Shown in pieces: positions 26,162 through 57,296 of a stretch of DNA of 64,000 nucleotides. The notes beneath the pieces are model-generated. The model saw only the letters and a list, made by a program, of their open reading frames with translations. It was not told where the DNA came from and searched no databases. Position 1 is the stretch's first letter, and every line of letters begins with the position of its first letter. The position numbers and the translations under genes are program-made. Origin of the DNA: Candidatus Harrisonbacteria bacterium (GTDB taxonomy: Bacteria > Patescibacteriota > Minisyncoccia > UBA6257 > 1-14-0-10-44-23); contig JAHFLF010000002.1 of the NCBI GenBank assembly GCA_023255625.1, forward strand, positions 39,734 through 103,733. Reading direction: 5' to 3'.

Positions 26162-26345
26162 AGAGTAATCGCTAATAATGCGAATGATTAGGTAATAATG
26201 CGAATGAGAGATGAACGATAAATATTATAGCATGCGAAGAAAATAGAAGAAGTCTGAATCGGGGGCGGTTTGCTGACAAAAAGGCGGCCGTAAAGAAGTC
26301 CTGGCCGATCTTTTGTCAGCAAACCGCCAACATGCGCAAACTACT

Positions 26346-39255: not shown

Positions 39256-39954
39256 CTAACTGGTTACAAGCTGTGGATAACCTTCCTCCTTAATTTTGAT
39301 CACATAGTAGTTACTTGGCCCACCATCCCCTTGCCGCATTATTTTTCCGGAATCTGTAAGAATTTTTAAATCATTCCGAATAGTTCTTTCACTTAATTCC
39401 GGAAATACGGCAATAAAGTCTCTTAATTGCAATTTTCCGGAAATTGCCGAACCTAATAATTCCATTATTTTGTCTTGCCGCATTTTTGCCGTATATTCTG
39501 CCGTATTATCTAATTCTGAAGTTACCGGCTCATTGCCTATTTCTGAATCATCGATGATTACCTCCTGAAAATCATTTTTTGACCTTACCTCTGGCGCTGA
39601 TCTTGCTACTTGTTTTTTTATTGGAACTTTAACAGTAAATAAAGAGGCAGCATCAATCTTCTCGGCCAGTCCACTAATTTGCCGGATATCGGTCTCTAAA
39701 GATTCAAGTTCGCGTTCTAAAATTTTGGCATTTACCGGTTCGATCTCGTAAAGATTCTTGCCCAAAATAATAAATTGCCGGATAGCATTAAAAACCGGCA
39801 AAATCGTTTCCGGATTACTGAATGCCATATTCTGAAGCAGATCGTAGCTTAATTTCTCAATTCTTTGCCGCAATTCGGTTCGGCGGATGTATGCGGCAAT
39901 CTTTATTACGGCAAAAGCAATTTCCTGACCCTTCTGAATGATCATTTTTTGCAT
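39256..39954 (-). CDS. Hypothetical regulator: four-helix-bundle-like N-terminal domain plus C-terminal HTH
   Basis: C-terminal LRDFIAVFPELSERTIRNDLKILTDSGKIMRQG resembles a DeoR/winged-HTH segment. Confidence 0.35.
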   Translation of the reverse strand: MQKMIIQKGQEIAFAVIKIAAYIRRTELRQRIEKLSYDLLQNMAFSNPETILPVFNAIRQFIILGKNLYEIEPVNAKILERELESLETDIRQISGLAEKIDAASLFTVKVPIKKQVARSAPEVRSKNDFQEVIIDDSEIGNEPVTSELDNTAEYTAKMRQDKIMELLGSAISGKLQLRDFIAVFPELSERTIRNDLKILTDSGKIMRQGDGGPSNYYVIKIKEEGYPQLVTS

Positions 39955-40080: not shown

Positions 40081-40527
40081 ATGGCCACCAAAAAGAAGCC
40101 GGGCGTGCGTGGACCGTACCGCCACTCCTCTGACTTTTTAGGGGGACAGATGCGTAAGGCAAAGGCGCGGAAAAAGGCCCAGCACGAAAAGGCCTGGCTT
40201 CCGCGAAACAGGCCGCGCATCAAGATCCTGGCCAGAATGAGGCAACGGGGAGCAAGTGGAGCAGAGATCGGACTGGCGCTTGGCGGATTGTGCAAGCAAC
40301 GGATCGGGGAGATCCTGAAAAGAGCCGAACGGCTCCTGGGGAAGGAGATGTTCGAGCCCAAGGAACCGATGGTCACGCTGCGAGAAGCGGCGGCAAGGTT
40401 CGGCGTCCGAGCCAGTTGGATCCGCTATCTCTGCAAAAAAGATAAGATCCCTCATGAGCGGTGCGGCAGACGCTACCGCTTAACCAAGGAGAGCATGGAT
40501 TTCTTACAGGAATGCCTGGAGGAATAA
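40081..40527 (+). CDS. GC-rich small basic protein with C-terminal excisionase/AlpA-family HTH (HTH_17-like)
   Basis: Arg/Lys-rich N-terminus; C-terminal MVTLREAAARFGVRASWIRYLCKKDKIPHERCGRRYRLTKESMDFL fits the excisionase-family pattern. Embedded in an about 540-bp >60% GC patch. Confidence 0.45.
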   Translation: MATKKKPGVRGPYRHSSDFLGGQMRKAKARKKAQHEKAWLPRNRPRIKILARMRQRGASGAEIGLALGGLCKQRIGEILKRAERLLGKEMFEPKEPMVTLREAAARFGVRASWIRYLCKKDKIPHERCGRRYRLTKESMDFLQECLEE

Positions 40528-42436: not shown

Positions 42437-43327
42437 CTAAAATGCCCTGATCAGTAGCAAATTTTTCAAATCAATCAGCTGCTGATTGCCGGCTAATTCC
42501 GGAGAGTTCAGCAAAAACAAAACCGTCTGCAGGCGCTCACCGGAACTACCGGCGGCAGAGCCGATCTGGCTTACTAGCGCCAAACCGCCCTGGATAGCAA
42601 TTCTGGTCAGGATAGCTGCGCGCTGCTCCAATAAAGTTGTAGCAACTTGATTACTGCCCTTAAAAGCCGCCTCTCTAGCGATTAGGTCAAAAACCTCTGC
42701 TGTCCGTAATTGTTCTACCGGTGCTTTTTCTGAAAGACCTTCGGTGGCAATCGAAACAAATTTTTCACTTCCTATAACCGATTCAATTTCTGCAACGGCG
42801 ACCGAACTCATCCGCTCTTTAACATCGCCCAAAACCGCCTGATGTGCGTTACTCAAATTTGACCAGCCGGTCATTTCATCGACTAGGCGCAGATTACTCA
42901 TAAATGTCGTAACAATGCCGGCCGACAGCCCCAATTTATCGCCGGCAGCTGACCAATTAAAATGCGAAAGCGTCAGCCCGTATTGATAATTCGCAAGCTG
43001 ATAATCCCGTAGCGCCTCAAGTGTCAATTTATCGTTTTTCGGACTGACCTCGTAAGTCTTTAAAAGTCGGGCTGCATATTGATTTAGCAGCAGAGTCCGA
43101 GAAGCGAGCTTGTCGTCGGCGAATGAACTTTTTATATCATCAACTACGCGCACTAACCGGAAAAATGGATTAGAGCGAACAAATGTAACCTGCTCCACAC
43201 CGAACATATCGGTAGTCGACGATCCCGGGGCCATTGGTTTAGTTTTAGCGCCAACTGGAGTAATCGCTAATACGCTAATAGCCAATAATGCTAATAGAGG
43301 AAAAAATGTTTTTTTTATCTTTTTCAT
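42437..43327 (-). CDS. Hypothetical secreted protein
   Basis: MKKIKKTFFPLLALLAISVLAITPVGA signal peptide; no known motif. Confidence 0.4.
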   Translation of the reverse strand: MKKIKKTFFPLLALLAISVLAITPVGAKTKPMAPGSSTTDMFGVEQVTFVRSNPFFRLVRVVDDIKSSFADDKLASRTLLLNQYAARLLKTYEVSPKNDKLTLEALRDYQLANYQYGLTLSHFNWSAAGDKLGLSAGIVTTFMSNLRLVDEMTGWSNLSNAHQAVLGDVKERMSSVAVAEIESVIGSEKFVSIATEGLSEKAPVEQLRTAEVFDLIAREAAFKGSNQVATTLLEQRAAILTRIAIQGGLALVSQIGSAAGSSGERLQTVLFLLNSPELAGNQQLIDLKNLLLIRAF

Positions 43328-44696: not shown

Positions 44697-46508
44697 CTAC
44701 CCACGAGCCAGATCCCTATAATCTTCTAACAATTTTGTCAATTTTTCGGCATCTTTTGAAAGCTCCGCCTTACGGATCTCCTCTTGCAGCTCCTTCCGGC
44801 GCAAAGACGCCCCCTCTTTCGAAAGCTCGGCAAAAAGCTGCTCTGTCTCCCCTTTTCCCGGCTCAAACCCGGATTCTAAATAAATCAGGTTGACTATACC
44901 GATAAGCTCCGGAGCCAGTGCGCTATCGCTGATTTGCGTGCCGGTAACCAAATTCTGCGCTAAATATTCCAAAACCGGTTGATACGCACTGGGAAAATAC
45001 TTTTTACTATCCAGCGCCTGCTGCATAACTATTTTATCGCGCAGCGCCAGAGAGAGAATCCGCCGGACTATTCTCTCCAGCCGATTTATGGGCTGATCAA
45101 CGAAAGCCACTGCAGATTTTGGCTCCTCTACCTTTGCGCCGGCCGCCGCCGAGATCTTTACAACATTCATTTCGGCGCTAATCGCCTGCTCCGACAATCC
45201 GGTTCTTGAAGCCAGTAGCTGCAGCCAATGCTGCTGCTCAATAGGACTAGCAATTCCTTTTATTTTTTGCAGCGCCTGCCTAATCCCCTTTTTTAAAATA
45301 GCAAAGTCCCCGCCCCGGCCGCGATCAATTCCGTAATAGTTAAAATAATATTCCATTGCCGGAATTGCTTTACCAATTAATTCGGCGAAGTGGCCCGGCT
45401 TATTCTTTGCAATGTCGGCTGGATCTTTAAGTGTCGGGTCGTTTCCGACGCCTGATGGGTCGGAACCCCGACCTTGCACCGCAAGCGTCGGGGCATACAC
45501 GATCACCTTCGTATTCAAGTCATTTTGCTGCGCCAGATCAATCGTCCGCTCCGCCGCCGCCTTGCCGGCACTGTCGTTGTCAAATGAAAGCACTAAATTT
45601 TCTGCCAGCCGGCGCAGTAGCTTCAAATGCTCATCGGTCAGAGCCGTTCCAGAGGTAGCCACCACATTTTTCACTCCGTCCTGGTAAGTCATTAAAAAAT
45701 CCATCTGCCCCTCGACAAGCACCGCCTGATTCTGTTCGCGCACGCTATTTTTTGTCTTCCAAAACCCGTACAGTAACTTTGATTTCTGAAAAATCGGAGT
45801 TTCCGGCGAATTAACATATTTTCCGACCTCCGGACTTTCTTCGCCTGGTTGGACACGCCCCGTGAAACCAATTACCTTGCCGAAGTGATTATGCAAAGGA
45901 AACATAATCCGGTTTCGGAATCGGTCATAATACATCCCGCGCTCGGTTTTAAAAATAAGTCCGGCTCGTTCAATGTCGGCTGCCGAAAAACCAAGTTTGA
46001 CTAGATGCCGCATCAGATTATCGCTACCCGGCAATGCTACGCCAAGCTCAAATTCGTTGATGGTCTCTTCTTTCAACCCGCGATCTTTCAGATACGCAAG
46101 CGCGGGGTTGCCCGCTGCAGCGGGCAACCCCGCGCCCTCCCACATACTTGCCCGAAAATAATCTTTAGCAATCCGGTTAATCTCGTAAAGCACCTCATAT
46201 TTTTTCTGGTCACTCGTCCCGACTCGCTTTAACTCAACTCCGGCTCGGTCAGCCAAAACTTTCAGCGCCTCGATAAATTCAATATTTTCAAACTGCATCA
46301 AAAATGCAAAAATATCGCCGCCCTTGCCACAACCAAAACAATGCCAAATCTGCCGTTCCGGATTGACCATAAACGACGGCGACTTCTCTTTATGAAAAGG
46401 ACACAGCCCTTTCAAGTTCCGGCCAGCCGGTTTAAGCGCAACATAACCGGCGACAAAATCTTTAACATCTATTTTTTGCTTAATCGCGTCGATAGTTGGG
46501 TCGGCCAT
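44697..46508 (-). CDS. dnaG: DNA primase DnaG
   Basis: CHC2 zinc finger (GLCPFHKEKSPSFMVNPERQIWHCFGCGKGGD); TOPRIM core (VLVEGQMD). Contains two GC-rich palindromic in-frame insertions. Confidence 0.9.
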   Translation of the reverse strand: MADPTIDAIKQKIDVKDFVAGYVALKPAGRNLKGLCPFHKEKSPSFMVNPERQIWHCFGCGKGGDIFAFLMQFENIEFIEALKVLADRAGVELKRVGTSDQKKYEVLYEINRIAKDYFRASMWEGAGLPAAAGNPALAYLKDRGLKEETINEFELGVALPGSDNLMRHLVKLGFSAADIERAGLIFKTERGMYYDRFRNRIMFPLHNHFGKVIGFTGRVQPGEESPEVGKYVNSPETPIFQKSKLLYGFWKTKNSVREQNQAVLVEGQMDFLMTYQDGVKNVVATSGTALTDEHLKLLRRLAENLVLSFDNDSAGKAAAERTIDLAQQNDLNTKVIVYAPTLAVQGRGSDPSGVGNDPTLKDPADIAKNKPGHFAELIGKAIPAMEYYFNYYGIDRGRGGDFAILKKGIRQALQKIKGIASPIEQQHWLQLLASRTGLSEQAISAEMNVVKISAAAGAKVEEPKSAVAFVDQPINRLERIVRRILSLALRDKIVMQQALDSKKYFPSAYQPVLEYLAQNLVTGTQISDSALAPELIGIVNLIYLESGFEPGKGETEQLFAELSKEGASLRRKELQEEIRKAELSKDAEKLTKLLEDYRDLARG

Positions 46509-46618
46509 GCCTTTACTATATCCCTACGCGCCCGCTGGCGCAATAAAAGATTGTAAATTTATGAACCCTGCGCTATGTTGAATCTGTGACGCCTCGCGCG
46601 TCCGGAAAGGAGTCGGTC

Positions 46619-46792
46619 ATGACAAGTTTGCAGTTCTTTGGCGGGATCCTGATTCTGGTGGGAATCCTGCTCTTCCTACTCGGCTACAACCTAGTCGGTA
46701 AGAACGGGGGCGGCGTGATAGCCGGACTCTTCGGCATGCTGTCAGTTGCCTGCGCCGCAATCGGTATGGTGTTTTTCCTTGGGAGGGGCTAA
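46619..46792 (+). CDS. Small hydrophobic protein (57 aa, 2 predicted TM), GC-rich
   Basis: SD GGAAAGGAG 5 nt before the ATG at 46619. MTSLQFFGGILILVGILLFLLGYNLVGKNGGGVIAGLFGMLSVACAAIGMVFFLGRG. Confidence 0.45.
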   Translation: MTSLQFFGGILILVGILLFLLGYNLVGKNGGGVIAGLFGMLSVACAAIGMVFFLGRG

Positions 46793-46944
46793 TGAACCCC
46801 TTGCTAACGATTGCCGGCGTCATCCTGGTTCTCGCTAGTGCCGCTCGTGGCTACAGAGCGGTGTGGCAGGAGGAATACGAGGAGGCGGCTGGATACGCAT
46901 TTCTGTTCCTGGTCGGCGCCTGCTTCCTGGTGGCGGCCCGATGA
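46792..46944 (+). CDS. Small hydrophobic protein (50 aa, 2 TM), translationally coupled
   Basis: ATG overlaps the upstream stop (TAATG). MNPLLTIAGVILVLASAARGYRAVWQEEYEEAAGYAFLFLVGACFLVAAR. Confidence 0.4.
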   Translation: MNPLLTIAGVILVLASAARGYRAVWQEEYEEAAGYAFLFLVGACFLVAAR

Positions 46945-47354
46945 TGAACATCTTCGTGCTCGCACCGTTGTGCATCCTTCCCGTGCTGGTGTTCGGCCTG
47001 ATCATGATCGGGCGCGTGCGAGTTATCTTCCGAACCTGCTACCCGCCCGGGGCAGAGCGCCCACCCTGCATCGTTCGGTGGCCACGACATCGCTTCGAGG
47101 CCTGGTTCTACCTCGCTGTAGGATCAGCGCTGATAGGAACGGCGAGCGCCTGCCTCGTCGGAGTTCTGCTTCTACTCGCAGGCGTCGACCAGGTCCGGCG
47201 AGAAGAGATCTTCTGGTTCCAGAGCGCATGGTGCTGGCTGGCCGGTGGAGGCATCCTGGCGAACCTCTGCGGATTCACCACGCAGCGGTTCGATGGACTC
47301 AATCGTGATTGGACGAAATTCAAGGAGGAACAACATAAGTGCGCGACCAGCTAA
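46941..47354 (+). CDS. Small membrane protein (137 aa, 3-4 TM), translationally coupled (ATGA overlap)
   Basis: MMNIFVLAPLCILPVLVFGLIMIG... The ORF track's longer N-terminus (from 46863) is probably spurious. Confidence 0.4.
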   Translation: MMNIFVLAPLCILPVLVFGLIMIGRVRVIFRTCYPPGAERPPCIVRWPRHRFEAWFYLAVGSALIGTASACLVGVLLLLAGVDQVRREEIFWFQSAWCWLAGGGILANLCGFTTQRFDGLNRDWTKFKEEQHKCATS

Positions 47355-47376
47355 CATCACGCTCGGTCCCGCTTAG

Positions 47377-47425
47377 CTCGAACCCGTCATGCAGACTCGT
47401 CGTCCGCCCGACGGGTTCTGCATTT
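47377..47425 (+). terminator. Hairpin after the small-membrane-protein operon
   Basis: GAACCCGTC ... GACGGGTTC 9-bp stem followed by TGCATTT. Confidence 0.35.
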
Positions 47426-47516
47426 AAAGCTGCCCCTTGCACTTTTTATATATTTCTAGTATTCTATCTCTTATCTTATTCGCATTATTAGCTATCCGCG
47501 TATTAGCGATTACTCT

Positions 47517-47831
47517 ATGAAACACTGTGAAGTTTGCAAAAAGACCTCAATCATGGCCGGCACCAGAATTCTTTTGCGTGGTCACTACAACCCGACCAAC
47601 TGGAGCCGTAAGTACCCGAACCTGCAAAAATCAGTTAATCCGGCCGGCGAAAAAGTTTTTTGCTGCACCGGCTGCATCCGCACCTTTGGCAAGGTAGCAC
47701 GAATGAAAGATAAAAAAGCAAAAGCAATTGTTGCTGCAGCTGCGAAAGCCGCTGCGCCGAAGCCAGTTGCAAAGCCCGCCGCTCCAGCGAAAGTAAAGAA
47801 ACCGAAAGCCGAAAAGAAAGCGGCAAAGTAG
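47517..47831 (+). CDS. rpmB: Ribosomal protein bL28 with Lys/Ala-rich C-terminal tail
   Basis: C-x2-C...RKYPNLQK...C-x2-C pattern like bL28 (KRRFLPNLQ). Tail AAAAKAAAPKPVAKPAAPAKVKKPKAEKKAAK. Upstream TTGCAC-17-TATTCT promoter-like; downstream hairpin ATCCCT/AGGGAT with T-run at 47858-47892. Confidence 0.6.
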   Translation: MKHCEVCKKTSIMAGTRILLRGHYNPTNWSRKYPNLQKSVNPAGEKVFCCTGCIRTFGKVARMKDKKAKAIVAAAAKAAAPKPVAKPAAPAKVKKPKAEKKAAK

Positions 47832-48081
47832 TTGGAAAAAAATCAAAGTAAATAATCAAAATCCCTTTGCCAGACGGCGAGGGATTTTTGAATGCTGCAG
47901 AATACTAAATATCACTTATTATTACGGCCGTGATAATAAGTGATATTTGAATAAAAAATAATTTTAGAAAAAATATTTTTGTTGCGGCCAACCCGTCAAT
48001 AAGCTATTCTGTAGTCAAAACTTAAATTAAAACAGCTTGTCTAACTAATTGAATTCGCGCTGACAAGTCGTAGGCAGATAA

Positions 48082-48152
48082 CGGGATGTGGTGTAGTGGT
48101 AGCACGCGTGGCTGGGGGTCATGCAGTCCGGGTCCGATTCCCGGCATCCCGA
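48082..48152 (+). tRNA. tRNA-Pro (anticodon GGG)
   Basis: Hand-folded: acceptor CGGGATG/CATCCCG, D-arm GTGT-AGTGGTA-GCAC, anticodon stem CGTGG/TCATG (2 G-U) with loop CTGGGGG, T-arm CCGGG-TCCGATT-CCCGG, discriminator A. The GC-rich island starts immediately 3'. Confidence 0.75.
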
Positions 48153-48414
48153 CCTTTAAATAAATTATGACGGGTAAATATATGGCAGACTCAGTTTCGG
48201 CTGATCCCTTCAGGGTTGTCAGCTTTTCGGCTACCTGCTATGTTGGGGTAGCGAGCCAGAAGCTCTGGCTTCTGTCCTCGCTACCCCGTCGTGCAGAATA
48301 GGCAAAAAGCTGCACAACGCGGTGTAAAGATACTTTTGAGACGGGTTCTGGAGTAAGATAAAATTTCGGTTGTTCGGCCACCGAAATTAAAGTGCCGACT
48401 TAGGGAGATTCCCG

Positions 48415-48849
48415 ATGCAGACGCATGAGCCACTTTTTTGTGTCGCTGGCGGATTTCCCGCTGCAACAATCGCCTGTTTCGGTCCGACCGCGACGGCACA
48501 TTTCGTCGAGATGACCGCAGTAGAGGCGGTCGGCTGGATCCGCGCCAAGGACACGGCAACACTGAAGCTCCTTTGGCGATACGGCCCAGAGGAGTCGCTG
48601 CTTCGTGAATTCATGGCTGGTCAAGGCCTGGCCGACCTGCTCAAGGGACGCGATCGCCCAGACCGTCTGAACGGCAGCCGCTTCGAACGGCTCGAGGCGA
48701 TCATCGTCTTTCGCACCGAAAGCGGGGCTGTCCGTATTCGTCTGTTGACAATGGAGCCAACCTGTCCCCTCGACTCTGAAGAAGAGCCGACGGTCGAGGT
48801 TCAACTGCCACCAGAGGAGATCGCTGACATCAACCAACTCGGCGAGTGA
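48415..48849 (+). CDS. Hypothetical protein (GC-rich island)
   Basis: GGGAG SD 8 nt before the ATG. Competing minus-strand ORFs exist in this high-GC stretch, so the frame choice is tentative. Confidence 0.3.
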   Translation: MQTHEPLFCVAGGFPAATIACFGPTATAHFVEMTAVEAVGWIRAKDTATLKLLWRYGPEESLLREFMAGQGLADLLKGRDRPDRLNGSRFERLEAIIVFRTESGAVRIRLLTMEPTCPLDSEEEPTVEVQLPPEEIADINQLGE

Positions 48850-48964
48850 GTAACCTCGCCAACCGCACCAGGGGCCCCGACGCAAATGCGCTCGGGGCCC
48901 TCGGACTATTCGGTCTCAACGCATAAGCTCCGAAGTCCCGCCAAGATGAGATATAATCGGCTAA

Positions 48965-49033
48965 CCCCCAAACTTTTCCCCAAGATGAGCAGGGATACCT
49001 TTTACTGCTCCCTTTGGGGAAAAGTTTGGGGGG
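48965..49033. repeat. Core-conserved palindromic element, copy 1 (+ orientation)
   Basis: Arm ccccaaacttttcccc, core CAAGATGAGCAGGGATACCTTTTACTGCTCCCTTTGG, arm ggggaaaagtttgggg; the arms are exact reverse complements. Confidence 0.6.
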
Positions 49034-49038
49034 CCGGC

Positions 49039-49103
49039 AACCAAAAATTCCCGCCATAGGGAGCAGTAAATCCTATCTGCTCATCTTGACGGGAATTTTG
49101 GGA
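49039..49103. repeat. Core-conserved palindromic element, copy 2 (- orientation, variant core), convergent with copy 1
   Basis: Arms ccaaaaattcccg / cgggaattttgg; core variant CCATAGGGAGCAGTAAATCCTATCTGCTCATCTTG. Confidence 0.55.
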
Positions 49104-49264
49104 TTGCGCTTTTATTAAAAGACTATTTTTGTTTTTTATATTTCTAAATTAAAATCTTAAAAATCACAAAGGGCCGGACGAAGATCGTCACGGCCCTTGT
49201 GCTGTTGCGAGGACACTTACTTCGGGCGGTCCTCGACTTTGCCCGTTGAGCTTGCGCTCCATGT

Positions 49265-49873
49265 CTACCTCCTCCGTCGCGACTGCGACGGGATCTCGTA
49301 GCCGCCGTAGCGGCTGCGAGGCAGGTTCACGCCTGCCGAGCGGTGGGTCCATGTCCCGCCGCCGTTGCCGCTGTTGTACCCGCCGACATATGCCGGCTGA
49401 TACAGCGGCGTAGAAGCCGACGACGCCCCGATCGCGACGCCGGTCGCATATGACTGCGACTGCGTCGTCGGCTGGGAGTCCGGCGGCTCCCATCCGGCCT
49501 CGATGAGGAGCTTCCTCATCTCGTCCGGCGAAACGCCCCCCAGCCCCGTCGTCGCGGCCGCGCTGACCGCAGCCGCGTTGGCAGGCGTCGGCGTCGCGGA
49601 GTGGGCGCGAATCCATTCCTTGATCAAGGAAGGCGGACCGTTGAACTGGTCTCCTCCCTCCTTGATCAATCGCCTCGTGCCGTCGGGGTCGGTCGAGTTC
49701 GTCGACCCCTCCGAGGAATGCCGCGTGAACTCCACGGATTCCTCGGGCTCGTCCGACTCGACGATCTGAACGAACGTCTGCCGGACCTCTTCCATCGGAT
49801 TCACGGCCCGACACCCCGTCGCGACACCCAGTGTCGTCGCGATGACACACAGAACGATGAGGGGGTTCCTCAT
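49265..49873 (-). CDS. Putative lipoprotein (GC-rich island)
   Basis: Likely start MRNPLIVLCVIATTLGVATGC (lipobox ATGC) with GGAGG SD. Ser/Thr/Gly-rich mature region. Confidence 0.5.
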   Translation of the reverse strand: MRNPLIVLCVIATTLGVATGCRAVNPMEEVRQTFVQIVESDEPEESVEFTRHSSEGSTNSTDPDGTRRLIKEGGDQFNGPPSLIKEWIRAHSATPTPANAAAVSAAATTGLGGVSPDEMRKLLIEAGWEPPDSQPTTQSQSYATGVAIGASSASTPLYQPAYVGGYNSGNGGGTWTHRSAGVNLPRSRYGGYEIPSQSRRRR

Positions 49874-49930
49874 GTTCGTCTCCTTCCGGCCCGTAGGCCT
49901 CCCCAACTGCACTATGCGTTGGTGGAATAT

Positions 49931-49959
49931 ATTATACACCTATTGTATCAAAATGTCAA
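49931..49959 (-). promoter_or_regulatory. Consensus sigma70 promoter TTGACA-17-TATAAT driving the 49265..49873 gene
   Basis: Minus-strand read: tttgacattttgatacaataggtgtataat. -35 region motif ttgacattttgat shared with the other three island promoters. Confidence 0.55.
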
Positions 49960-50000
49960 ATCTAACACCAGCGAATTCAGCAAGTAAGTAAAAGTCCCGA

Positions 50001-50070
50001 GCCCCTAAACTTCCCGCCAAAGGGAGCAGTAAAAGGTATCCCTGCTCATCTTGGCGAGAAGTTTAGGGGC
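50001..50070. repeat. Core-conserved palindromic element, copy 3 (- orientation)
   Basis: Arms gcccctaaacttc / gaagtttaggggc flank the exact complement of the copy-1 core. Confidence 0.6.
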
Positions 50071-50085
50071 TCATTTTATTCATAA

Positions 50086-50292
50086 AAATGAAAAGAGCCG
50101 AGTACCAGTGAAGGTATCCTCGGACTCTTTTCGCTACCGGTATTTCTCGGGTCTTCCTGCCCGCGTTCCCACCGGTAGGAACAACTCTCACTGGAACGAA
50201 CTTTCACCTCTCAATCTGGGAATACTCCTTTTCTTCAGCTACTCTCAACCAGATTCCCCTTTGGTTGAGTGGCTGTGGCGCGAAGTTGCGCC
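50086..50292 (-). repeat. 207-bp duplicated element, copy 1, starting 1-2 nt after a stop codon and ending in a hairpin plus U-run
   Basis: About 99% identical to 52250..52456. On the transcribed strand it begins with a GGCGC-AACTTC-GCGCC hairpin, contains CTCAACCA/TGGTTGAG and GTTCC-TACCGGTGG-GAAC hairpins, and ends GAGTCCGAGGATACC..GGTACTCGGCTC + TTTT. The ORF-track proteins 50051..51097 and 52221..52619 on the plus strand just translate it. Confidence 0.6.
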
Positions 50293-50293
50293 G

Positions 50294-50998
50294 TCAGAGC
50301 CGAGCGAGATCATCGACCAAGCTCTTCGCCAAGTCAGTGTCCCGCACATGGGCATTGATCTGCTCGATCATCTTCGAGAGACCAACGTCCGCGATGAGCG
50401 CCGGATAGCTCCGACGCATCGCCTGCCGCCGATCTTCGGCGACCTTGGGCAGAGGCGGCCTGGACGTGAGAGCTGCGAAATAGCTCTCCGCGTCCTTGCC
50501 GAACGCCTCCAAGGCGGCGTTCTGGACCACCTTCACCTTCGCCGCTGCCTGCGCGTCGGCGAAGTCGCGCATCGCCGCCCGGATCAGATCCGGCGTCTTC
50601 GCCTGCTGCTCGGCCAGGTCCTTGACCTGCGCCGCCAGCGCGACGATGGCCGGGTCGACTCTCGGCGCCTTCTCGAGCGCCTCGAGTCGCTTCTCGAGCG
50701 TGCTCTTGTCGGCGAGCTGCTTCGCCAGCCCGGCGATCTGCGCCTGCAGCTGCTTGAAGGACTCGTCGGACACCTGCGATGCGGCACTCTGTGTGCCGGA
50801 CAGTCTGGCGAGACTCGCCTCCGACGCCGCCAGCCGCGTCTCGAGCCGGTTGATCCCCTCGGTCGCCGCGTCGACGCGCCCGGAGACCTCGTCGGCGTGC
50901 TGACTGCCGCCGCCGAACTGTCCGTAGGAAACCCCCCACGCGACGGCGCCCAGGACCGCGACCGCCCCGACCCACAGAAGAATATTCGTGAGCTTCAT
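50294..50998 (-). CDS. Membrane-anchored coiled-coil protein (GC-rich island)
   Basis: Likely start MKLTNILLWVGAVAVLGAVAWGV (TM anchor) after SD GGAGAGGGAGGG; Ala/Gln/Leu-rich heptad-like remainder. Confidence 0.5.
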   Translation of the reverse strand: MKLTNILLWVGAVAVLGAVAWGVSYGQFGGGSQHADEVSGRVDAATEGINRLETRLAASEASLARLSGTQSAASQVSDESFKQLQAQIAGLAKQLADKSTLEKRLEALEKAPRVDPAIVALAAQVKDLAEQQAKTPDLIRAAMRDFADAQAAAKVKVVQNAALEAFGKDAESYFAALTSRPPLPKVAEDRRQAMRRSYPALIADVGLSKMIEQINAHVRDTDLAKSLVDDLARL

Positions 50999-51079
50999 AA
51001 AACCCTCCCTCTCCGACCCTACTTGGGGTACGGACCAACGGCTTCTGGCCGCTGGCAATCGGGCATTTCCGACCTAAAT

Positions 51080-51109
51080 ATTATAGCATATAAATAGCAT
51101 CTCTGTCAA
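51080..51109 (-). promoter_or_regulatory. Consensus sigma70 promoter TTGACA-18-TATAAT driving 50294..50998
   Basis: Minus-strand read: cttgacagagatgctatttatatgctataat. Confidence 0.5.
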
Positions 51110-51234
51110 GCAATCAAATTGTTATAAAAACGGCACGCCCCCAAAGTACAGTTCTTCTGTATCTCCAGGGGCGCATGCTCGGACTGATTTTGCTTGATTC
51201 CGATGAAGTCCGTAGACATCGGAGCAATTGGTGA

Positions 51235-51900
51235 TCACTTCTTGAAGAAGATCACCGGGTGCGGCTTCTCTGCCGGAGCCGGAGTCGCGTGCGGCTGTCG
51301 GCTCGCCCGAATGAAGTTCAGGACGGCGAAGCCGAGCAGGATCACCAGGACGGCGAAGACAATCCGCAGCGGCCAGCTCGTCCTCGGCTGCTGCTCGACG
51401 ACCTCGTCGGACTCCGGCTGCTCGGAGACCTCCGTCCGATCGTCGGCAGCTGGAGCTGCCGGGCGGCCTCGTCGAAAGACCTCCTGGACAGCCAAGGCGT
51501 CTGGCTGCCTTGCAGCCGCAGGGACTTCGTCGACGAAGGTGTCCTGTCTCGAGATCTCGACCGTCGCCATCCTCGGCTCGGCCGACGACAGGTCCAGGTC
51601 GTCCCCCTCGCCGAAGATCAGGTCGTCGGAGGCATCCTCCGAGTCGCCCTTCTTCCCAGCCGAGAGGTCGATGACGCCCGTCTCCTCTTCGGACCGCACG
51701 CCGGTCAGGTCGAGGTTCTCGACGTCCGCCTTGCGGAACTTCATGACGTCGATCTTCTGACCAGGTTTCGCCGGATCATCCTGCTTCTCGCGTAAGGCGC
51801 GGATCTCTCCCTCCGAGACCAGCCGCTTCAGCTTGGGCTCGTCGATGGTGAGGCGCTTCAGGACCTCGTCGAATGTCAAGAACTCGCCGCTCTTGCCCAT
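51235..51900 (-). CDS. HTH (excisionase/MerR-like), acidic linker and C-terminal TM-anchor protein (GC-rich island)
   Basis: Likely start MGKSGEFLTFDEVLKRLTIDEPKLKRLVSEGEIRALRE (HTH_17-like); Asp/Glu-rich middle; C-terminal WPLRIVFAVLVILLGFAVLNFI helix. Confidence 0.45.
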   Translation of the reverse strand: MGKSGEFLTFDEVLKRLTIDEPKLKRLVSEGEIRALREKQDDPAKPGQKIDVMKFRKADVENLDLTGVRSEEETGVIDLSAGKKGDSEDASDDLIFGEGDDLDLSSAEPRMATVEISRQDTFVDEVPAAARQPDALAVQEVFRRGRPAAPAADDRTEVSEQPESDEVVEQQPRTSWPLRIVFAVLVILLGFAVLNFIRASRQPHATPAPAEKPHPVIFFKK

Positions 51901-51980
51901 GATCGTCTCCCTTCCCTCCGTGCAAAAACACAGAGGAACGCAGCACAACGCCGCGTTTAACGGTCATTTCCGTCAAAATT

Positions 51981-52009
51981 AACATAGCATTTTATTATCA
52001 AAATGTCAA
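51981..52009 (-). promoter_or_regulatory. sigma70-like promoter TTGACA-17-TATGTT driving 51235..51900
   Basis: Minus-strand read: tttgacattttgataataaaatgctatgtt. Confidence 0.45.
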
Positions 52010-52049
52010 ATCTAACACCGCGAGTTCAACAAGTAAGTGCAAAGCCGCA

Positions 52050-52118
52050 AACCTAGAGTTTCCCCCAAGATGAGCAGGGATACCTTTTACTGCTCCCTTT
52101 GGGGGAAACTCTAGGTTT
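52050..52118. repeat. Core-conserved palindromic element, copy 4 (+ orientation)
   Basis: Arms aacctagagtttccccc / gggggaaactctaggttt; core identical to copy 1. Confidence 0.6.
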
Positions 52119-52130
52119 GCGATTCGGAAT

Positions 52131-52202
52131 GAAAACTTAAGATTCTCCCCATAGGGAGCACTAAATCCTATGTGCTCATCTTGGGGAGAATCTTAAGTTT
52201 TC
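52131..52202. repeat. Core-conserved palindromic element, copy 5 (- orientation, variant core with compensatory stem change), convergent with copy 4
   Basis: Arms gaaaacttaagattctcccc / ggggagaatcttaagttttc. Inner stem GAGCAC/GTGCTC replaces GAGCAG/CTGCTC. Confidence 0.55.
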
Positions 52203-52249
52203 TGATTAATCAACATCGGTATGTGTTTTGGGTTAAATACATTCAACAA

Positions 52250-52456
52250 AAAAGAAAAGAGCCGAGTACCAGTGAAGGTATCCTCGGACTCTTTTCGCTA
52301 CCGGTATTTTTCGGGTCTTCCTGCCCGCGTTCCCACCGGTAGGAACAACTCTCACTGGAACGAACTTTCACCTCTCAATCTGGGAATACTCCTTTTCTTC
52401 AGCTACTCTCAACCAGATTCCCCTTTGGTTGAGTGGCTGTGGCGCGAAGTTGCGCC
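52250..52456 (-). repeat. 207-bp duplicated element, copy 2, directly after the TAG stop of 52456..53043
   Basis: One mismatch against copy 1 (tatttttcgg vs tatttctcgg). Confidence 0.6.
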
Positions 52457-53043
52457 TACGGGAGCTGGGCGGTCGCCAGCCCGATCAGCCCACTGTGCTT
52501 GGTGGCCACGACGGCCGCCAGACAGGTGGCGTTGTCGGGAAAGGGCTTGCCGCCGTTGCCCACCCTGCGGAACTTCCGCACCAGGAACACCGCTTCGGCG
52601 CTCCTGCCGTCGTCGATGAGCGCCGCGGCCTCGGCGAGCAGCTTGTCCGCGACCGGACCCGCTGCCGGAGCCGACTTCTTCTCGAGGACATCGACCCGCG
52701 CCCCGAGGTCGACGACCTCGTCGGCGATCGCGCCGACGACCGTGGACGATGCCCAGTCCTTGGGGTTGAACCCCGCGGACGACGCCGGCACGGCAGTCTG
52801 CGCGGCGACCGGAGCGGTGGCAGAGGCCGCCGGCGCAGGGGCCGCCACCGCCACCGGCTGGCTCACGACCGGCGTCGGCAGTGTCGCAGCCGGAGCCGCC
52901 ACGACAGCCGCCGGCGTGGCGGCAGTCGCCTGCTGCGGGCACGAACCCGCAGTCGGATCGGCGCTGACGCCGATCCCGAACACGCTCCGACATCCTCCCG
53001 CCGCGAGCACCGCGGCGAGCACGACCAACCTTCGCGTCTGCAT
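52456..53043 (-). CDS. Putative lipoprotein, Ala/Pro-rich (GC-rich island)
   Basis: MQTRRLVVLAAVLAAGGC signal/lipobox; PAAVVAAPAATLPTPVVSQPVAVAAPAPAASATAP linker; SD GGGAGGAG. Confidence 0.5.
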   Translation of the reverse strand: MQTRRLVVLAAVLAAGGCRSVFGIGVSADPTAGSCPQQATAATPAAVVAAPAATLPTPVVSQPVAVAAPAPAASATAPVAAQTAVPASSAGFNPKDWASSTVVGAIADEVVDLGARVDVLEKKSAPAAGPVADKLLAEAAALIDDGRSAEAVFLVRKFRRVGNGGKPFPDNATCLAAVVATKHSGLIGLATAQLP

Positions 53044-53123
53044 CGTTCGATCTCCTCCCGGGGTTTTACCCCGTTCTAATGGACCCGCCCGACCCTCGCT
53101 GGGTCAGTCCGAATCGCCTAAAA

Positions 53124-53540: not shown

Positions 53541-55964
53541 TCAAATAATTAGATTAATCAGCCGGTCTGGCACAAAGATCACTTTCTTCGGAGCGCCGCT
53601 CACCCATTTTTTAATACTTTCTTGCAAAAGAGCCAACTCAATCGCCTCGGCTTGAGTAATCCCCTTTTGTGCCTGTATAGTCCCACGCACCCGGCCGTTC
53701 ACCTGAATAATTAAATCAAAAGTATGCTCGATAATAAGCGAGGGATCAAAGGAGGGCCAGGGCTGTTGGCACAGTAGTAACGAATCGCGAGTAGCGAGTA
53801 GCGAGTTTAATTCTTCAGTGATATGCGGAGCGAAGGGCGACAAAATTTTCAGGAATTTCTGCCAATCTTCATTTGTAATCTGTAATTTGTAATTCGTGAT
53901 TTGATTTATGAATATCATCATCGCAGAAACAGCTGTGTTAAACGACATGCTCTCAATGTCTTCTGAAACTTTTTTGATGGTCTTATGCAGTAAACGAACC
54001 ACTTTGGTATCACTCGTGCTCACCCGTGCCTCACTTGTGCCCACATGTATCCCTATCTTCCATATCTTCTCCAAAAACCTGGCCGTACCTAATACGCCAT
54101 GGTTATCCCACGCCGCCGCTTGATTAAATGGTGCGATAAACAAAATGTAGAGCCGCAGGGCGTCAGCACCAAACTCTTTAACAAAATCATCCGGGTTGAC
54201 AATGTTGCCAACGGACTTGCTCATCTTAGCTCCATCGCTGGCAAGAATAGTCCCCTGCGCCGTTCGCTTTTGATACGGTTCTTTGACCGGTACAAGCCCC
54301 TGATCGTACAAAAATAAATTCCAAAAACGGGAATAAAGTAAATGTAGCGTAACATGCTCCATGCCGCCGTTGTACCAATCCACGGGCAGCCAATAAGATA
54401 GTTTATCAAGTTCCAAGTTCCAAGTTGCAAGTGAGACAGGATTCTTAAAAGCATTCGGACTCAAAAGATACGCCATGTAGTACCACGAAGAACCGGCCCA
54501 GTTGGGCATAGTGTCGGTCTCGCGCTTGGCCGGCCCCTTACACTGCGGGCACTTCGTATTTACCCATTTCGTCATTGTTGAAAGCGGCGACTCGCCGTTG
54601 TCTGTGGGCTGATACTTTTCAACTTTAGGCAGCTTTACGGGTAAATCTTTTTCAGGCACCGCAACCCAGCCGCACTTTGCGCAGTTAATAAGCGGGATCG
54701 GTTCACCCCAATATCGCTGGCGGCTAAAAACCCAGTCACGCAGTTTATAGGTAACTGTTTTTTTGCCACCGGTAATTGCCAATGCTTCATCAAAGGAGAT
54801 GAGCGGCTTATCAACAATCGGCAACTTGAATGTCTCTGCGAAGGCCCGGTCGCGCTCGTCATGTTGCGGCACTGCCATAATAGCTCCGGTTCCATAAGCG
54901 ACGAGCACATAATCGCCTATCCATACCGGGATCTTTTCTTTTGTCGCCGGATTAATAACTTTAATGCCTTTTAGCTCAACTCCGGTTTTTGCTTTCCCTT
55001 CCGAGGATCGGTCAAGATCGCTCTTCAGCTTTGTTTCTGCAATGTACTCTTGAACCTCTTTATAATTTGCAATTTGCAATTTAATTTTCTCGATAATTGA
55101 ATGTTCCGGCGCAAGCACGAGATAGGTCGCTCCGGAAATAGTGTCCGGCCGGGTGGTGAAGACCTTGATTAACTGGATTGCCACGCTACGCCCGCCAGAG
55201 GCGGGCAAGCTCGCAATGACAAGCGGGAATTCAATTTCCGCTCCCTCGCTGCGTCCAATCCAGTTTTCTTGCTGCGCTTTTATCTCCGGCAGATACTCAA
55301 CCTCTTTCAGCCCTTCAAGCAGTTTATCGGCATAAGCCGTAATTTTCAGCATCCATTGCTCCTTCTCACGCTGCTCAACTGCAGTGCCACATCGTTCGCA
55401 CTTGCCGCTAATAACTTCTTCGTTCGCCAGACCAATTTTATCTTTTGGACACCAGTTAATATTGACCCGCGCCTTGTAAGCCAGTCCGGCCTTAAATAAT
55501 TGCAGAAAAATCCACTGCGTCCATTTGTAATACTGCGGATCGGTCGTATTCACCTCGCGACTCCAGTCAAAAGAATACCCAAGCGACTGTAGCTGTTTAC
55601 GAAAATTTGTAGTATTTTGTTTGGTCGCAGTCTGCGGCGGAATACCAGTTTTAATCGCATAATTTTCAGTCGGCAGGCCAAAAGCGTCCCAACCCATGGG
55701 AAAAAGCACATTGTAACCTTCCATACGCCGCTTGCGGGCAAGCACATCAAAAGCCGTATAGGAACGCAGGTGGCCCATATGCATGCCCGCGCCAGATGGG
55801 TATGGAAATTCAACCAGGGCGTAGTACTTCTCCGACGCTTGCGGCGCAAGGTCGGAGCCCCGACCCTCCAGGCGTCGGGGTGGATCATCCTTGGCCTCGA
55901 AAACTTTTTCCGCTGTCCATTTTTTCTGCCACTTTTTTTCTATTTTCTGCGGATCGTAGTTCAT
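53541..55964 (-). CDS. leuS: Leucine--tRNA ligase
   Basis: MNYDPQKIEKKWQKKW start (the ORF-track N-terminus from 56066 is probably spurious). HMGH and KMSKS (AKMSKSVGN) motifs, CP1 editing domain. Contains a GC-rich palindromic in-frame insertion (PPRRLEGRGSDLAPQASE) just before the YPSG motif. Confidence 0.9.
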   Translation of the reverse strand: MNYDPQKIEKKWQKKWTAEKVFEAKDDPPRRLEGRGSDLAPQASEKYYALVEFPYPSGAGMHMGHLRSYTAFDVLARKRRMEGYNVLFPMGWDAFGLPTENYAIKTGIPPQTATKQNTTNFRKQLQSLGYSFDWSREVNTTDPQYYKWTQWIFLQLFKAGLAYKARVNINWCPKDKIGLANEEVISGKCERCGTAVEQREKEQWMLKITAYADKLLEGLKEVEYLPEIKAQQENWIGRSEGAEIEFPLVIASLPASGGRSVAIQLIKVFTTRPDTISGATYLVLAPEHSIIEKIKLQIANYKEVQEYIAETKLKSDLDRSSEGKAKTGVELKGIKVINPATKEKIPVWIGDYVLVAYGTGAIMAVPQHDERDRAFAETFKLPIVDKPLISFDEALAITGGKKTVTYKLRDWVFSRQRYWGEPIPLINCAKCGWVAVPEKDLPVKLPKVEKYQPTDNGESPLSTMTKWVNTKCPQCKGPAKRETDTMPNWAGSSWYYMAYLLSPNAFKNPVSLATWNLELDKLSYWLPVDWYNGGMEHVTLHLLYSRFWNLFLYDQGLVPVKEPYQKRTAQGTILASDGAKMSKSVGNIVNPDDFVKEFGADALRLYILFIAPFNQAAAWDNHGVLGTARFLEKIWKIGIHVGTSEARVSTSDTKVVRLLHKTIKKVSEDIESMSFNTAVSAMMIFINQITNYKLQITNEDWQKFLKILSPFAPHITEELNSLLATRDSLLLCQQPWPSFDPSLIIEHTFDLIIQVNGRVRGTIQAQKGITQAEAIELALLQESIKKWVSGAPKKVIFVPDRLINLII

Positions 55965-56034
55965 GGGAATGAAGTATGGGATAAGAATTATGAAGTATGG
56001 AAAATAAATTCCCGCTGCCCTTAATTCATACTTC

Positions 56035-56937
56035 TCACTTCTTAATTCCGAAAATGCGTTCCGCATTTTCGGTGGTTATTCTTGCCATTTCATCATACGA
56101 CACTCCCTTAATTTCCGCTAATTTTTTTACAACCTCTGTAATATATGCCGGCTCGTTGCGCTTCCCGCGGTGCGGCTCGGGGCTAACATACGGGGCGTCG
56201 GTTTCGGTCAGCAGCCGGTCAAGAGGAATCATTTTAATCTGCTCATCATAGTCCGGGCACTTGCCCGCCTTAGGCGGGAAGGTAATGACACCACCGAATT
56301 CAAAGTTAAATCCTGCTTGAAGAAATTTCTTGGTCATTGCTGCGGAGCCAACATAGAAATGTAGGACTCGCGGAAGTATGAAGTTAGAATTATGAATTAT
56401 GGCAAGGAGGTCTTCGTAAGCATCATCGGTGCTTTTGCCGGGCTTGCCCTCCGTAGCTTTAGCGAAGGAGGGCCGGCAATGAATCATGAGCGCTTTACCG
56501 ACCTCCTGCGCAATCCGTACATGCTGCAAAAACACATCTTTCTGTTTTATTCGTACTTTCGTAAAAGATTCGTCATTCGTAGCTCTATAGTAATCCAACC
56601 CGCACTCGCCGATAGCAACGACTTTTGGGTCGCGCGCTAAATTCAAATAAAAATCGTAATCAAACTCTTCCTCGCGACTCGTAAAACTCTTTGCCGCCGC
56701 TCCGCCCCCAAGCTCATTCTCATCATGATACGACTTTGCGGTGTGAACAGGATGCAAGCCGATCGCGGCGTAAACATCCTTTTCATAAAAGTTGGCAATC
56801 TCAACCGCCCGCGCAGAGGTATCCCGCTGCGTACCAACATTAATGATTGAAACGCCGGCAGCTAAAGAGCGGTCAATGACCTCTTTCCAATCCTTTTCAA
56901 AAGCGGCAAATTGTACATGCGTATGGCAATCGAACAT
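56035..56937 (-). CDS. tatD: TatD-family metal-dependent hydrolase/DNase
   Basis: MFDCHTHVQF (HxH), later GLHP and GECGLDY motifs. Confidence 0.8.
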   Translation of the reverse strand: MFDCHTHVQFAAFEKDWKEVIDRSLAAGVSIINVGTQRDTSARAVEIANFYEKDVYAAIGLHPVHTAKSYHDENELGGGAAAKSFTSREEEFDYDFYLNLARDPKVVAIGECGLDYYRATNDESFTKVRIKQKDVFLQHVRIAQEVGKALMIHCRPSFAKATEGKPGKSTDDAYEDLLAIIHNSNFILPRVLHFYVGSAAMTKKFLQAGFNFEFGGVITFPPKAGKCPDYDEQIKMIPLDRLLTETDAPYVSPEPHRGKRNEPAYITEVVKKLAEIKGVSYDEMARITTENAERIFGIKK

Positions 56938-57296
56938 AAAGAGTAATCGCTAATATACGAATAGCGAATAATGCTAATGGAAATATGATACCAGAAAAAT
57001 TAATTTCAGATAGCCGCTTGACTTAAATTCATTGCTGTTATAGATTACTAAGCAACGGAGAGAGAAAATCTCTCTGGTAAACATAACCTGTGAATCGGAG
57101 TTGGGGTTGAGATGTGGGTTACACGGCCCACCCCGTTAGTCGAAAGAGTCTTGTAAAGCGACTTGTCGAGCCAACTGGAGGGTCTTCCGATCCCTCTTCA
57201 TAACTCGGCATTAGCCACCCTAACTCCTCCATCCTCGCGCGACCCGACAGAAGCTCTGCCGGGTCTTTGATTTTTAAAATATAATCGCTCAACTTG

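Follow-up and report, generated by a model that had tools for sequence, protein, structure and literature searches.

A GC-rich islet between dnaG and an rpmB-like gene of a Candidatus Harrisonbacteria bacterium as a probable lineage-restricted operon of three coupled membrane micro-proteins

In Escherichia coli, the primase gene dnaG is part of the macromolecular-synthesis operon rpsU-dnaG-rpoD. In the Candidatus Harrisonbacteria bacterium examined here (GenBank assembly GCA_023255625.1, contig JAHFLF010000002.1, of which positions 39,734 to 103,733 of the forward strand were analysed as one stretch of 64,000 nucleotides (nt), referred to as the window), rpoD likewise comes after dnaG and in the same orientation, but rpsU is missing upstream of dnaG. 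Instead, a divergent gene resembling rpmB is found there, together with a GC-rich islet that lies between both genes and holds a cassette of three small open reading frames (ORFs), i.e., orfA, orfB, and orfC. Members of the candidate phyla radiation (CPR, or Patescibacteria) combine very small genomes with a dependence on other cells, and their envelope proteins are mostly uncharacterised. The closest described counterparts of the islet are phage holins, orphan small membrane-protein genes, and the genomic islands of Patescibacteria. With phage holins (class I, e.g., lambda S105; PF07332), the cassette shares a small three-helix protein that starts with two Met codons in tandem and ends in a charged tail (orfC), as well as packed genes, but it differs in the long and basic loop of orfC, in its chromosomal slot beside dnaG, and in the lack of an endolysin, phage, or structural match. 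Orphan small membrane-protein genes, which include de novo transmembrane (TM) proteins from T-rich sequence (PMC7005711), resemble the islet in being short, hydrophobic, without homologues, T-rich at the second codon position, intergenic in relatives, and fast in turnover, whereas the islet stands apart as three GC-rich cistrons (at the third codon position; GC3) with ribosome-binding sequences, overlaps, and ends of their own. Finally, Patescibacteria are reported to contain many genomic islands (PMC12455944), to which the islet compares as a compositionally deviant piece with hypothetical genes in a streamlined CPR genome, although it is only ~0.85 kb long, GC-rich rather than AT-rich, free of integrase, repeats, and attachment (att) sites, and conserved in position.

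We interpret the islet as a genuine and self-contained tricistronic operon of lineage-restricted, fast-evolving, translationally coupled membrane micro-proteins, residing in a vertically inherited slot, and assign this interpretation a probability of roughly 60%. As such, it is an orphan example of a familiar kind, i.e., an operon of small membrane proteins at an intergenic hot spot of variable content, and on present evidence it involves no new mechanism.

An earlier note, made from the letters of the window alone, had listed ORFs of 57, 50, and 137 amino acids (aa) joined by TAATG and ATGA junctions, with a good Shine-Dalgarno (SD) sequence on the first, and both coordinates and sequence bear this out (Table 1). 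At the orfA/orfB junction, the orfB ATG and the orfA TAA have one base in common, and the orfB/orfC junction reads ATGATGA, so that the first orfC ATG overlaps the orfB stop codon as ATGA and the second as TGATG. The GC fractions at codon positions 1/2/3 are.57/.38/.71 for orfA,.67/.47/.71 for orfB, and.60/.47/.73 for orfC, and the position of maximal GC changes frame precisely at both junctions. All three ORFs favour G at the first, T at the second, and C at the third codon position (with T at the second position reaching.53 in orfA and.36 in both orfB and orfC), and base usage departs from independence of codon position with chi-square p-values of 2e-6 (orfA), 0.02 (orfB), and 5e-6 (orfC). 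Moreover, an ATG-coupled tiling of 736 nt by at most three ORFs arose in only 15 of 20,000 shuffles. On this internal evidence, orfA, orfB, and orfC are coding in the proposed frames. The DNA itself was recovered at 100% identity, across both flank junctions, in ERZ27280214 and ERZ27297344, and SRR14366772 yielded the exact orfA-C proteins in the same gene order. Since these independent assemblies are identical, an assembly chimera or sequencing error can be set aside.

Table 1. Features of the islet and its two flanking genes (positions in the window)
Feature	Position	Strand	Description
dnaG (primase), left flank	44697..46508	-	Divergent from cassette; Pfam Zn_ribbon_DnaG, DNAG_N, Toprim
Promoter-like site of cassette	46551..46579	+	TTGTAA-17 nt-TATGTT; putative, read from sequence
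SD of orfA	46607..46612	+	AAGGAG, 6 nt 5' of orfA ATG
orfA	46619..46792	+	57 aa; two-helix membrane hairpin
Internal SD for orfB	46781..46788	+	GGGAGGGG; within last orfA codons, ahead of orfB ATG
orfB	46792..46944	+	50 aa; two short hydrophobic helices around an acidic/basic loop
orfC	46941..47354	+	137 aa; starts Met-Met; three helices
3' stem-loop region	47380..47423	+	Hairpin A = 47380-47388/47410-47418; hairpin B = 47389-47395/47417-47423
Promoter-like site of rpmB-like gene	47437..47465	+	TTGCAC-17 nt-TATTCT; putative, read from sequence
rpmB-like gene, right flank	47517..47831	+	104 aa; CxxC...CxxC (four Cys), PNLQK, Lys/Ala-rich tail

The products are predicted to be membrane proteins throughout, and the 2, 2, and 3–4 TM helices that had been proposed for them compare with 2, 2, and 3 by hydropathy. 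In orfA, the TM segments span residues ~5–23 and 33–54 (grand average of hydropathy 1.58), while the helices of orfB span residues 3–18 and 35–49, with the charged loop in between. The three hydrophobic helices of orfC are matched by a single-sequence AlphaFold2 model with helices at 4–33, 47–79, and 87–136 (mean predicted local distance difference test score of 68). Its loop 25–52 holds seven Arg, and its C-terminal tail (residues 112–137) contains four K/R, one H, and four D/E, whereas orfA and orfB have no charged C-terminal tail. According to the positive-inside rule, positively charged segments face the cytoplasm, and the likely topology of orfC would thus place loop 25–52 and the tail in the cytoplasm and the N-terminus outside.

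The islet was compared with a collection of 162 loci (referred to by L numbers). Its DnaG protein places the window in the class Paceibacteria (Patescibacteria), with Harrison-, Wolfe-, Colwell-, and Liptonbacteria-type metagenome-assembled genomes, the closest matches being L003 (70% identity), L004 (61%), L006 (57%), and L005 (56%). About 45 of 160 related loci have the rpmB-like gene upstream of dnaG in divergent orientation, and in most relatives that keep the pair, the spacer between both genes is AT-rich and 41–250 bp long, compared to 1008 bp here. On this basis, the gene pair is considered ancestral and the islet additional DNA. This slot contains an SD-led 2-TM ORF of ~70 aa in L003 (GC3.88), two single-TM ORFs (49 and 38 aa) with a GTGA overlap in L005 (GC3.74), and a multi-TM ORF of 165 aa in L004 (GC3.65), and the dnaG genes of these three loci have a GC3 of.45–.56. 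L006, L024, and L154 carry unrelated cargo in the same spacer.

The ends of the slot are shared more widely than its content. Strong and equally placed SD sequences precede the slot ORFs in L003, L004, and L005. The stretch GCGCTATGxTxAATCTG (at the –10 part of the TTGxAx-17-TATGxT promoter-like site) and the SD region are common to the window and L003, and AAAAGATTGTA at –35 is common to the window and L004. The 3' untranslated regions (3'UTRs) of the slot share CATCAC, followed by a GC-rich hairpin. Within the coding part, orfA resembles the first ORF of L005 (z 4.9, p 0.001) and the L003 ORF (z 2.0), all three of which contain an in-frame GTGGGNATC(C/G)TG (encoding VGIL), and the TM2-TM3 hairpin of orfC resembles orfA through LVG(I/V)LL...GGG(V/I)(I/L)A (z 5.2, p 0.0015), although the sequences compared are hydrophobic and 18 tests were made, so that such p-values among slot ORFs are no more than suggestive. 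The latter likeness hints at a local duplication, and the cassette most likely grew from an ancestral orfA-like gene to which orfB and orfC were added in this lineage. Species whose DnaG is 56–70% identical to that of the window still have the slot, and since sister species hold different slot ORFs between related ends, the locus is best seen as a resident, vertically inherited variable locus instead of a recent insertion.

The 3' end of the slot was equally conserved in layout. A stem-loop follows orfC at 47380-47418 (GAACCCGTC...GACGGGTTC), and the 78-nt region 3' of orfC folds at –25.8 kcal/mol (z –2.6). The two hairpins of this region, A and B, have one arm in common and are mutually exclusive, with energies of –27.7 (A) and –24.0 kcal/mol (B) in the window, and –28.4 (A) and –28.7 kcal/mol (B) in L003. 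The same A/B topology recurs with differing sequences in L003 (5589-5629), L004 (70-105), and L005 (851-889), and between species the arms vary yet stay complementary (i.e., ATGCA/TGCAT, ACGCA/TGCGT, GTGCA/TGCAC, and ACGAGG/CCTCGT). The CCCACCG...CGGTGGG stem of L003, L004, and L005 was found nowhere else in the 162 loci or the window. An H-type pseudoknot was rejected on stereochemical reasoning, as its loops would be too short for a 9–10 bp stem, and the element is therefore read as two alternative hairpins. Presumably, this region stops transcription or insulates the promoter that follows, and hairpins A and B may form a switch of the attenuator type at the boundary of cassette and rpmB-like gene.

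In terms of mechanism, a weak sigma-70-like promoter ahead of orfA, which agrees with the consensus at eight of 12 positions, would give rise to a single mRNA of ~850 nt ending at the 3' stem-loop region, and the rpmB-like gene would be transcribed from a separate promoter. Ribosomes would enter at the orfA SD and reinitiate at the TAATG and ATGATGA overlaps, and such coupled reinitiation would be expected to deliver the three products in roughly fixed proportion. The products would then enter the cytoplasmic membrane as helical hairpins and might assemble into a small hetero-oligomeric membrane complex. Because the slot keeps its ends while its ORFs change between sister species, an accessory and rapidly diversifying envelope function seems preferable to core physiology or lysis, possibly at the interface with host cells or phages or as membrane-embedded protection, with this role being the weakest step of the proposal. 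Likewise, since the membrane micro-proteins of the slot differ in every sampled species and stand beside essential genes of replication and transcription, the slot is a candidate for such a host/phage interface.

The patch of ~900 bp with >60% GC that had been noted is indeed GC-rich, but the mean over 46509-47430 is 58.6% (59.4% for the ORF part, with a peak of 65%), and values >60% are confined to ~46800-47250. The islet flanks have 46.5–47.5% GC and the genome 47%. The GC3 of orfA-C (.71–.73) lies ~4 standard deviations above the mean of 46 core genes (.476 +/-.061), and it also exceeds that of the host's own membrane proteins (.40–.61), so that the composition of the islet is truly atypical, beyond what hydrophobicity accounts for. 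Boundary repeats (terminal inverted or direct repeats, or a target duplication) were not found above chance in 46000-48200, nor was a recombinase (integrase or transposase) within or beside the islet. There was no second copy of islet DNA and no template/variable repeat as in diversity-generating retroelements in the window or the 162 loci, and genome, phage, and plasmid searches returned only identical islet copies from the same organism. An integron-type cassette was rejected as well, given the lack of intI, the single unit, and a hairpin motif confined to this site among the 162 loci and the window.

The neighbouring GC-rich patch proved informative on the age of this deviation. A block of 4.9 kb (48200-53100), to the right of the rpmB-like gene, contains orphan genes on the (–) strand with a GC3 of.67–.87, making it GC3-rich like the islet, and has a syntenic GC-rich counterpart in L003. 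Since this island is syntenic with L003, the GC excess is considered old, and GC-richness looks like a long-standing trait of fast-evolving, lineage-specific genes in this clade. The foreign composition claimed by the earlier note thus stands as far as the atypical GC3 is concerned, whereas recent transfer is unsupported by repeats, a recombinase, or a donor. Similarly, of the small membrane-complex operon carried by a mobile element that it had envisaged, the coupled membrane operon is retained and the mobile element, for which repeats, recombinase, and copies are missing, is not.

Database searches with orfA-C gave nothing significant in Pfam, PHROGs, NCBIfam, and PADLOC, so that the comparison with holin and small-toxin hidden Markov models (HMMs) suggested earlier yielded no match above threshold. 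The best Pfam match of orfC was Phage_holin_3_6 (12.9 bits, E 0.12, compared to a cutoff of 28.4 bits), and the sole database signal of orfB was phrog_27713 (unknown function, E 0.006). In a word-indexed search of 5.8 billion protein clusters, orfC and orfA retrieved only themselves, and a profile of orfA with its L003 and L005 counterparts retrieved itself and the L005 ORF (E 6e-5), the latter being already part of the profile. An exhaustive HMMER search with orfC in 1.84 billion protein representatives returned orfC itself and P0003 only, and P0003 was dismissed as a spurious homologue, being a translated tandem repeat. No matches were obtained by an IMG/VR scan, by tblastn in 50,697 phage genomes, which the earlier note had proposed to check, or by blastn in 72,556 plasmids. 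Rfam, both at the gathering threshold and with E up to 10, reported only tRNAs and one match with an E of 8.3, and across 46480-47540 no family with E <8. Foldseek with the orfC model was uninformative (best E of 0.3 in BFVD and 1.2 in PDB). Hence orfA-C have orphan status in all of the protein, phage, plasmid, and RNA libraries that were searched. The earlier note had named two grounds on which its ORFs would be doubtful, i.e., conservation nowhere and a better frame or strand: homologues are indeed absent, but coding potential favours the frames given, and codon periodicity fits these and no other.

That the ORFs are spurious after all, i.e., by-products of GC-rich and T-skewed DNA in a patch that is non-coding or coding elsewhere, could be argued from this absence of homologues, from the long ORFs in five of the six frames of the patch (e.g., 165 aa at 46811-47308), and from two gene-calling runs that chose an antisense shadow ORF of 61 or 62 aa over orfC. 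However, the competing ORFs, including the 165-aa ORF on the (+) strand and several on the (–) strand, have a GC at the second codon position that equals or exceeds GC3, or shadow patterns, as in non-coding sequence, whereas the G1/T2/C3 periodicity follows the proposed frames and shifts with them at the junctions. Together with the correct SD spacing, the ATG on the stop codon at both junctions, the rarity of such tiling in shuffles, and the fact that orfA and orfB were called in every assembly, this makes the explanation quite improbable. The same-strand arrangement of three ORFs in three frames, tiled without gaps, would also be expected from a frameshifted pseudogene of one ~245-aa membrane protein, but an ATG positioned exactly on the preceding stop at both junctions and the strong SD of orfB are at odds with such decay, the sequence is identical in independent assemblies and so free of sequencing error, and the fragments, orfC among them, match no family or protein; we therefore consider it very unlikely.

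The likeness to a holin/antiholin lysis cassette that was proposed earlier would make the islet a prophage remnant, with orfC as class I-like holin and orfA and orfB as modulators. Size, number of TM helices, charged C-terminal tail, and the two adjacent Met codons of orfC agree with this, and so do the sub-threshold Phage_holin_3_6 and phrog_27713 signals, but the Pfam score falls short of its cutoff, no PHROG holin or NCBIfam family was matched, endolysin, spanin, and phage genes are missing within 6 kb, and phage genomes, IMG/VR, and BFVD gave no match. Moreover, a basic loop of 28 residues, as present in orfC, is atypical for holins, and sister species likewise carry ORFs in this slot, next to essential genes. 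A lysis cassette is thus highly improbable. A membrane toxin-immunity, bacteriocin-immunity, or small-toxin module, in which a hydrophobic, membrane-perturbing peptide is kept in check by a partner translated along with it, had been suggested as well and would suit the small, hydrophobic, Gly-rich helical hairpins, their tight translational coupling, and the quick turnover of content between species, as in conflict systems. Known type I toxins, though, are single-TM peptides with an antisense RNA, whereas orfA-C have two to three TM helices each and no antisense RNA was matched in Rfam, a comparison that covers known families; no toxin, antitoxin, immunity, or defence family was matched in Pfam, NCBIfam, PHROGs, or PADLOC, and no leader of exported peptides or gene for processing or transport was found nearby, which renders this module unlikely. 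Recent acquisition from a GC-rich donor, via a mobile element or illegitimate recombination, is advocated by the deviating GC3 (z ~4 compared to core genes, and above the host's membrane proteins), the empty spacer in most relatives, and the genomic islands reported for Patescibacteria (PMC12455944). It is countered by the lack of terminal repeats, target duplication, and recombinase, by the absence of a donor among 1.84 billion protein representatives, phages, plasmids, and viral contigs, by the occupied slot of the nearest relatives, which have the 5' and 3' ends and the GC3 excess in common with the window, and by the synteny of the adjacent GC-rich island with L003; we judge such a transfer improbable.

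Returning to the tricistronic, vertically inherited operon, a number of points weigh against it. A consensus promoter and terminator scan of 46300-47700 reported no (+) site, so that promoter and terminator of the proposed mRNA stay below its thresholds; for the promoter-like site of the cassette, this is because just eight of 12 positions match. The hairpin announced after the last ORF is present (47380-47418), but it is followed by no T-run and failed the canonical terminator scan. Expression of orfA-C is a prediction, and complex formation and the envelope role are purely inferential. Only one of three gene-calling runs called orfC. A diverged orthologue of orfB or orfC was not found, and a signal of purifying selection is missing because all other copies are identical. 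L133 and L084, which are near the clade in a neighbour-joining tree of DnaG, have an empty spacer of 153 bp. Furthermore, the similarities between slot ORFs are weak (z 2–5 in 18 tests on hydrophobic, low-complexity sequences), and therefore "same locus, fast divergence" and "repeated replacement" are not cleanly separable. Finally, the orfA counterpart of L003 (5880-5900, – strand) has ATA in place of ATG at the same 6-nt spacing from the SD, and may either use a non-canonical start or be decaying.

A more far-reaching version, which we regard as possible but doubtful, is that the slot is a dedicated and vertically inherited "expression slot", in which a conserved promoter, SD, and two-hairpin 3' element frame a cargo of coupled membrane micro-proteins, GC3-rich like the orphan genes nearby, that is replaced or re-invented per species. 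This version draws on four genomes and weak similarities. If true, it would imply a localised GC-biased process (such as a gene conversion or recombination hot spot) or a form of cassette exchange undescribed in CPR. GC deviation would then also mark fast-evolving native genes here, and not recent transfer. Given that syntenic orphan genes keep their high GC3, compositional islets should in any case be equated with recent transfer only with caution. How genes of this type can be missed in annotation is illustrated by orfC, which two of three gene-calling runs left out.

With regard to the flanks, only orfA-C were found between dnaG and the rpmB-like gene. Leftward of the islet, alaS, a gene for a 296-aa secreted protein, rpoD, and dnaG are all on the (–) strand. 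The right flanking gene had been labelled rpmB, a name that Pfam, NCBIfam, and PDB sequence searches do not support, as none of them returned an L28 match for its product; a comparison with an approximate Bacillus subtilis L28 sequence gave an E of only 0.07. Any identity as L28 would draw on the PNLQK-type resemblance, and because of the missing HMM and PDB support, we use the name rpmB-like. Gene callers begin this gene at Met13 (92 aa), thereby cutting off the conserved N-terminal CxxC, and for this reason an exact look-up of the 104-aa form returned no record. The TTGCAx-17-TATxCT arrangement ahead of the rpmB-like gene also occurs in L003 and L005. A leader peptide in its 5'UTR was ruled out, as there is no start codon.

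The 40 nt directly 5' of the rpmB-like start codon (TTCGCATTATTAGCTATCCGCGTATTAGCGATTACTCT, 47477-47516) are a dispersed repeat, with further copies at 56940-56974 (–), 26162-26205 (–), and 43258-43296 (–). Copies with ~89% identity end 0–2 nt from start codons, i.e., those of tatD and of an ATG at ~26161, and in the 296-aa ORF a further copy encodes the signal peptide (LLALLAISVLAITP). A purine-rich SD is absent from the repeat, and neither L003 nor L005 has the repeat ahead of its rpmB-like gene.

Rightward, the rpmB-like gene is followed by tRNA-Pro (48082-48154), the orphan block of 4.9 kb, and leuS (53541-56066). A near-perfect, AT-rich palindrome of 42 nt (AAATATCACTTATTATTACGG/CCGTGATAATAAGTGATATTT) lies at 47907-47948, between the rpmB-like gene and tRNA-Pro. 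The orphan block has 60% GC (up to 72%) and begins beside tRNA-Pro, 0.8 kb from the islet. No integrase was found in it, nor a copy of the tRNA-Pro 3' end (att repeat) at its far end. Among its products are lipoprotein-like proteins (49265-49873 and 52456-53043), a coiled coil with a membrane anchor (50294-51058), and an HTH_17/excisionase-like protein whose C-terminus carries a TM helix (51235-51948), and the ORFs tested in this block (48.4–53.1 kb) had no Pfam domain above threshold, with only weak matches to excisionase-type helix-turn-helix (HTH) domains. The 237-aa HTH and TM protein is 30% identical to its L003 homologue, compared to 88% for RpoD, 80% for the L28-like protein, and 70% for DnaG between the same two genomes.

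On the other side, the dnaG coding sequence contains a perfect palindrome of 36 bp (GCGCGGGGTTGCCCGCTG/CAGCGGGCAACCCCGCGC; 46100-46135), which coincides with a six-residue insertion, GAGLPA, that is missing from 16 of 16 aligned DnaG relatives. Further leftward, beside alaS, the (+) strand contains a GC-rich ORF of 148 aa (40081-40527; 58% GC, GC3.69) that encodes an excisionase-family HTH protein (TIGR01764, E 1.2e-5; PADLOC mad1, E 8e-6).

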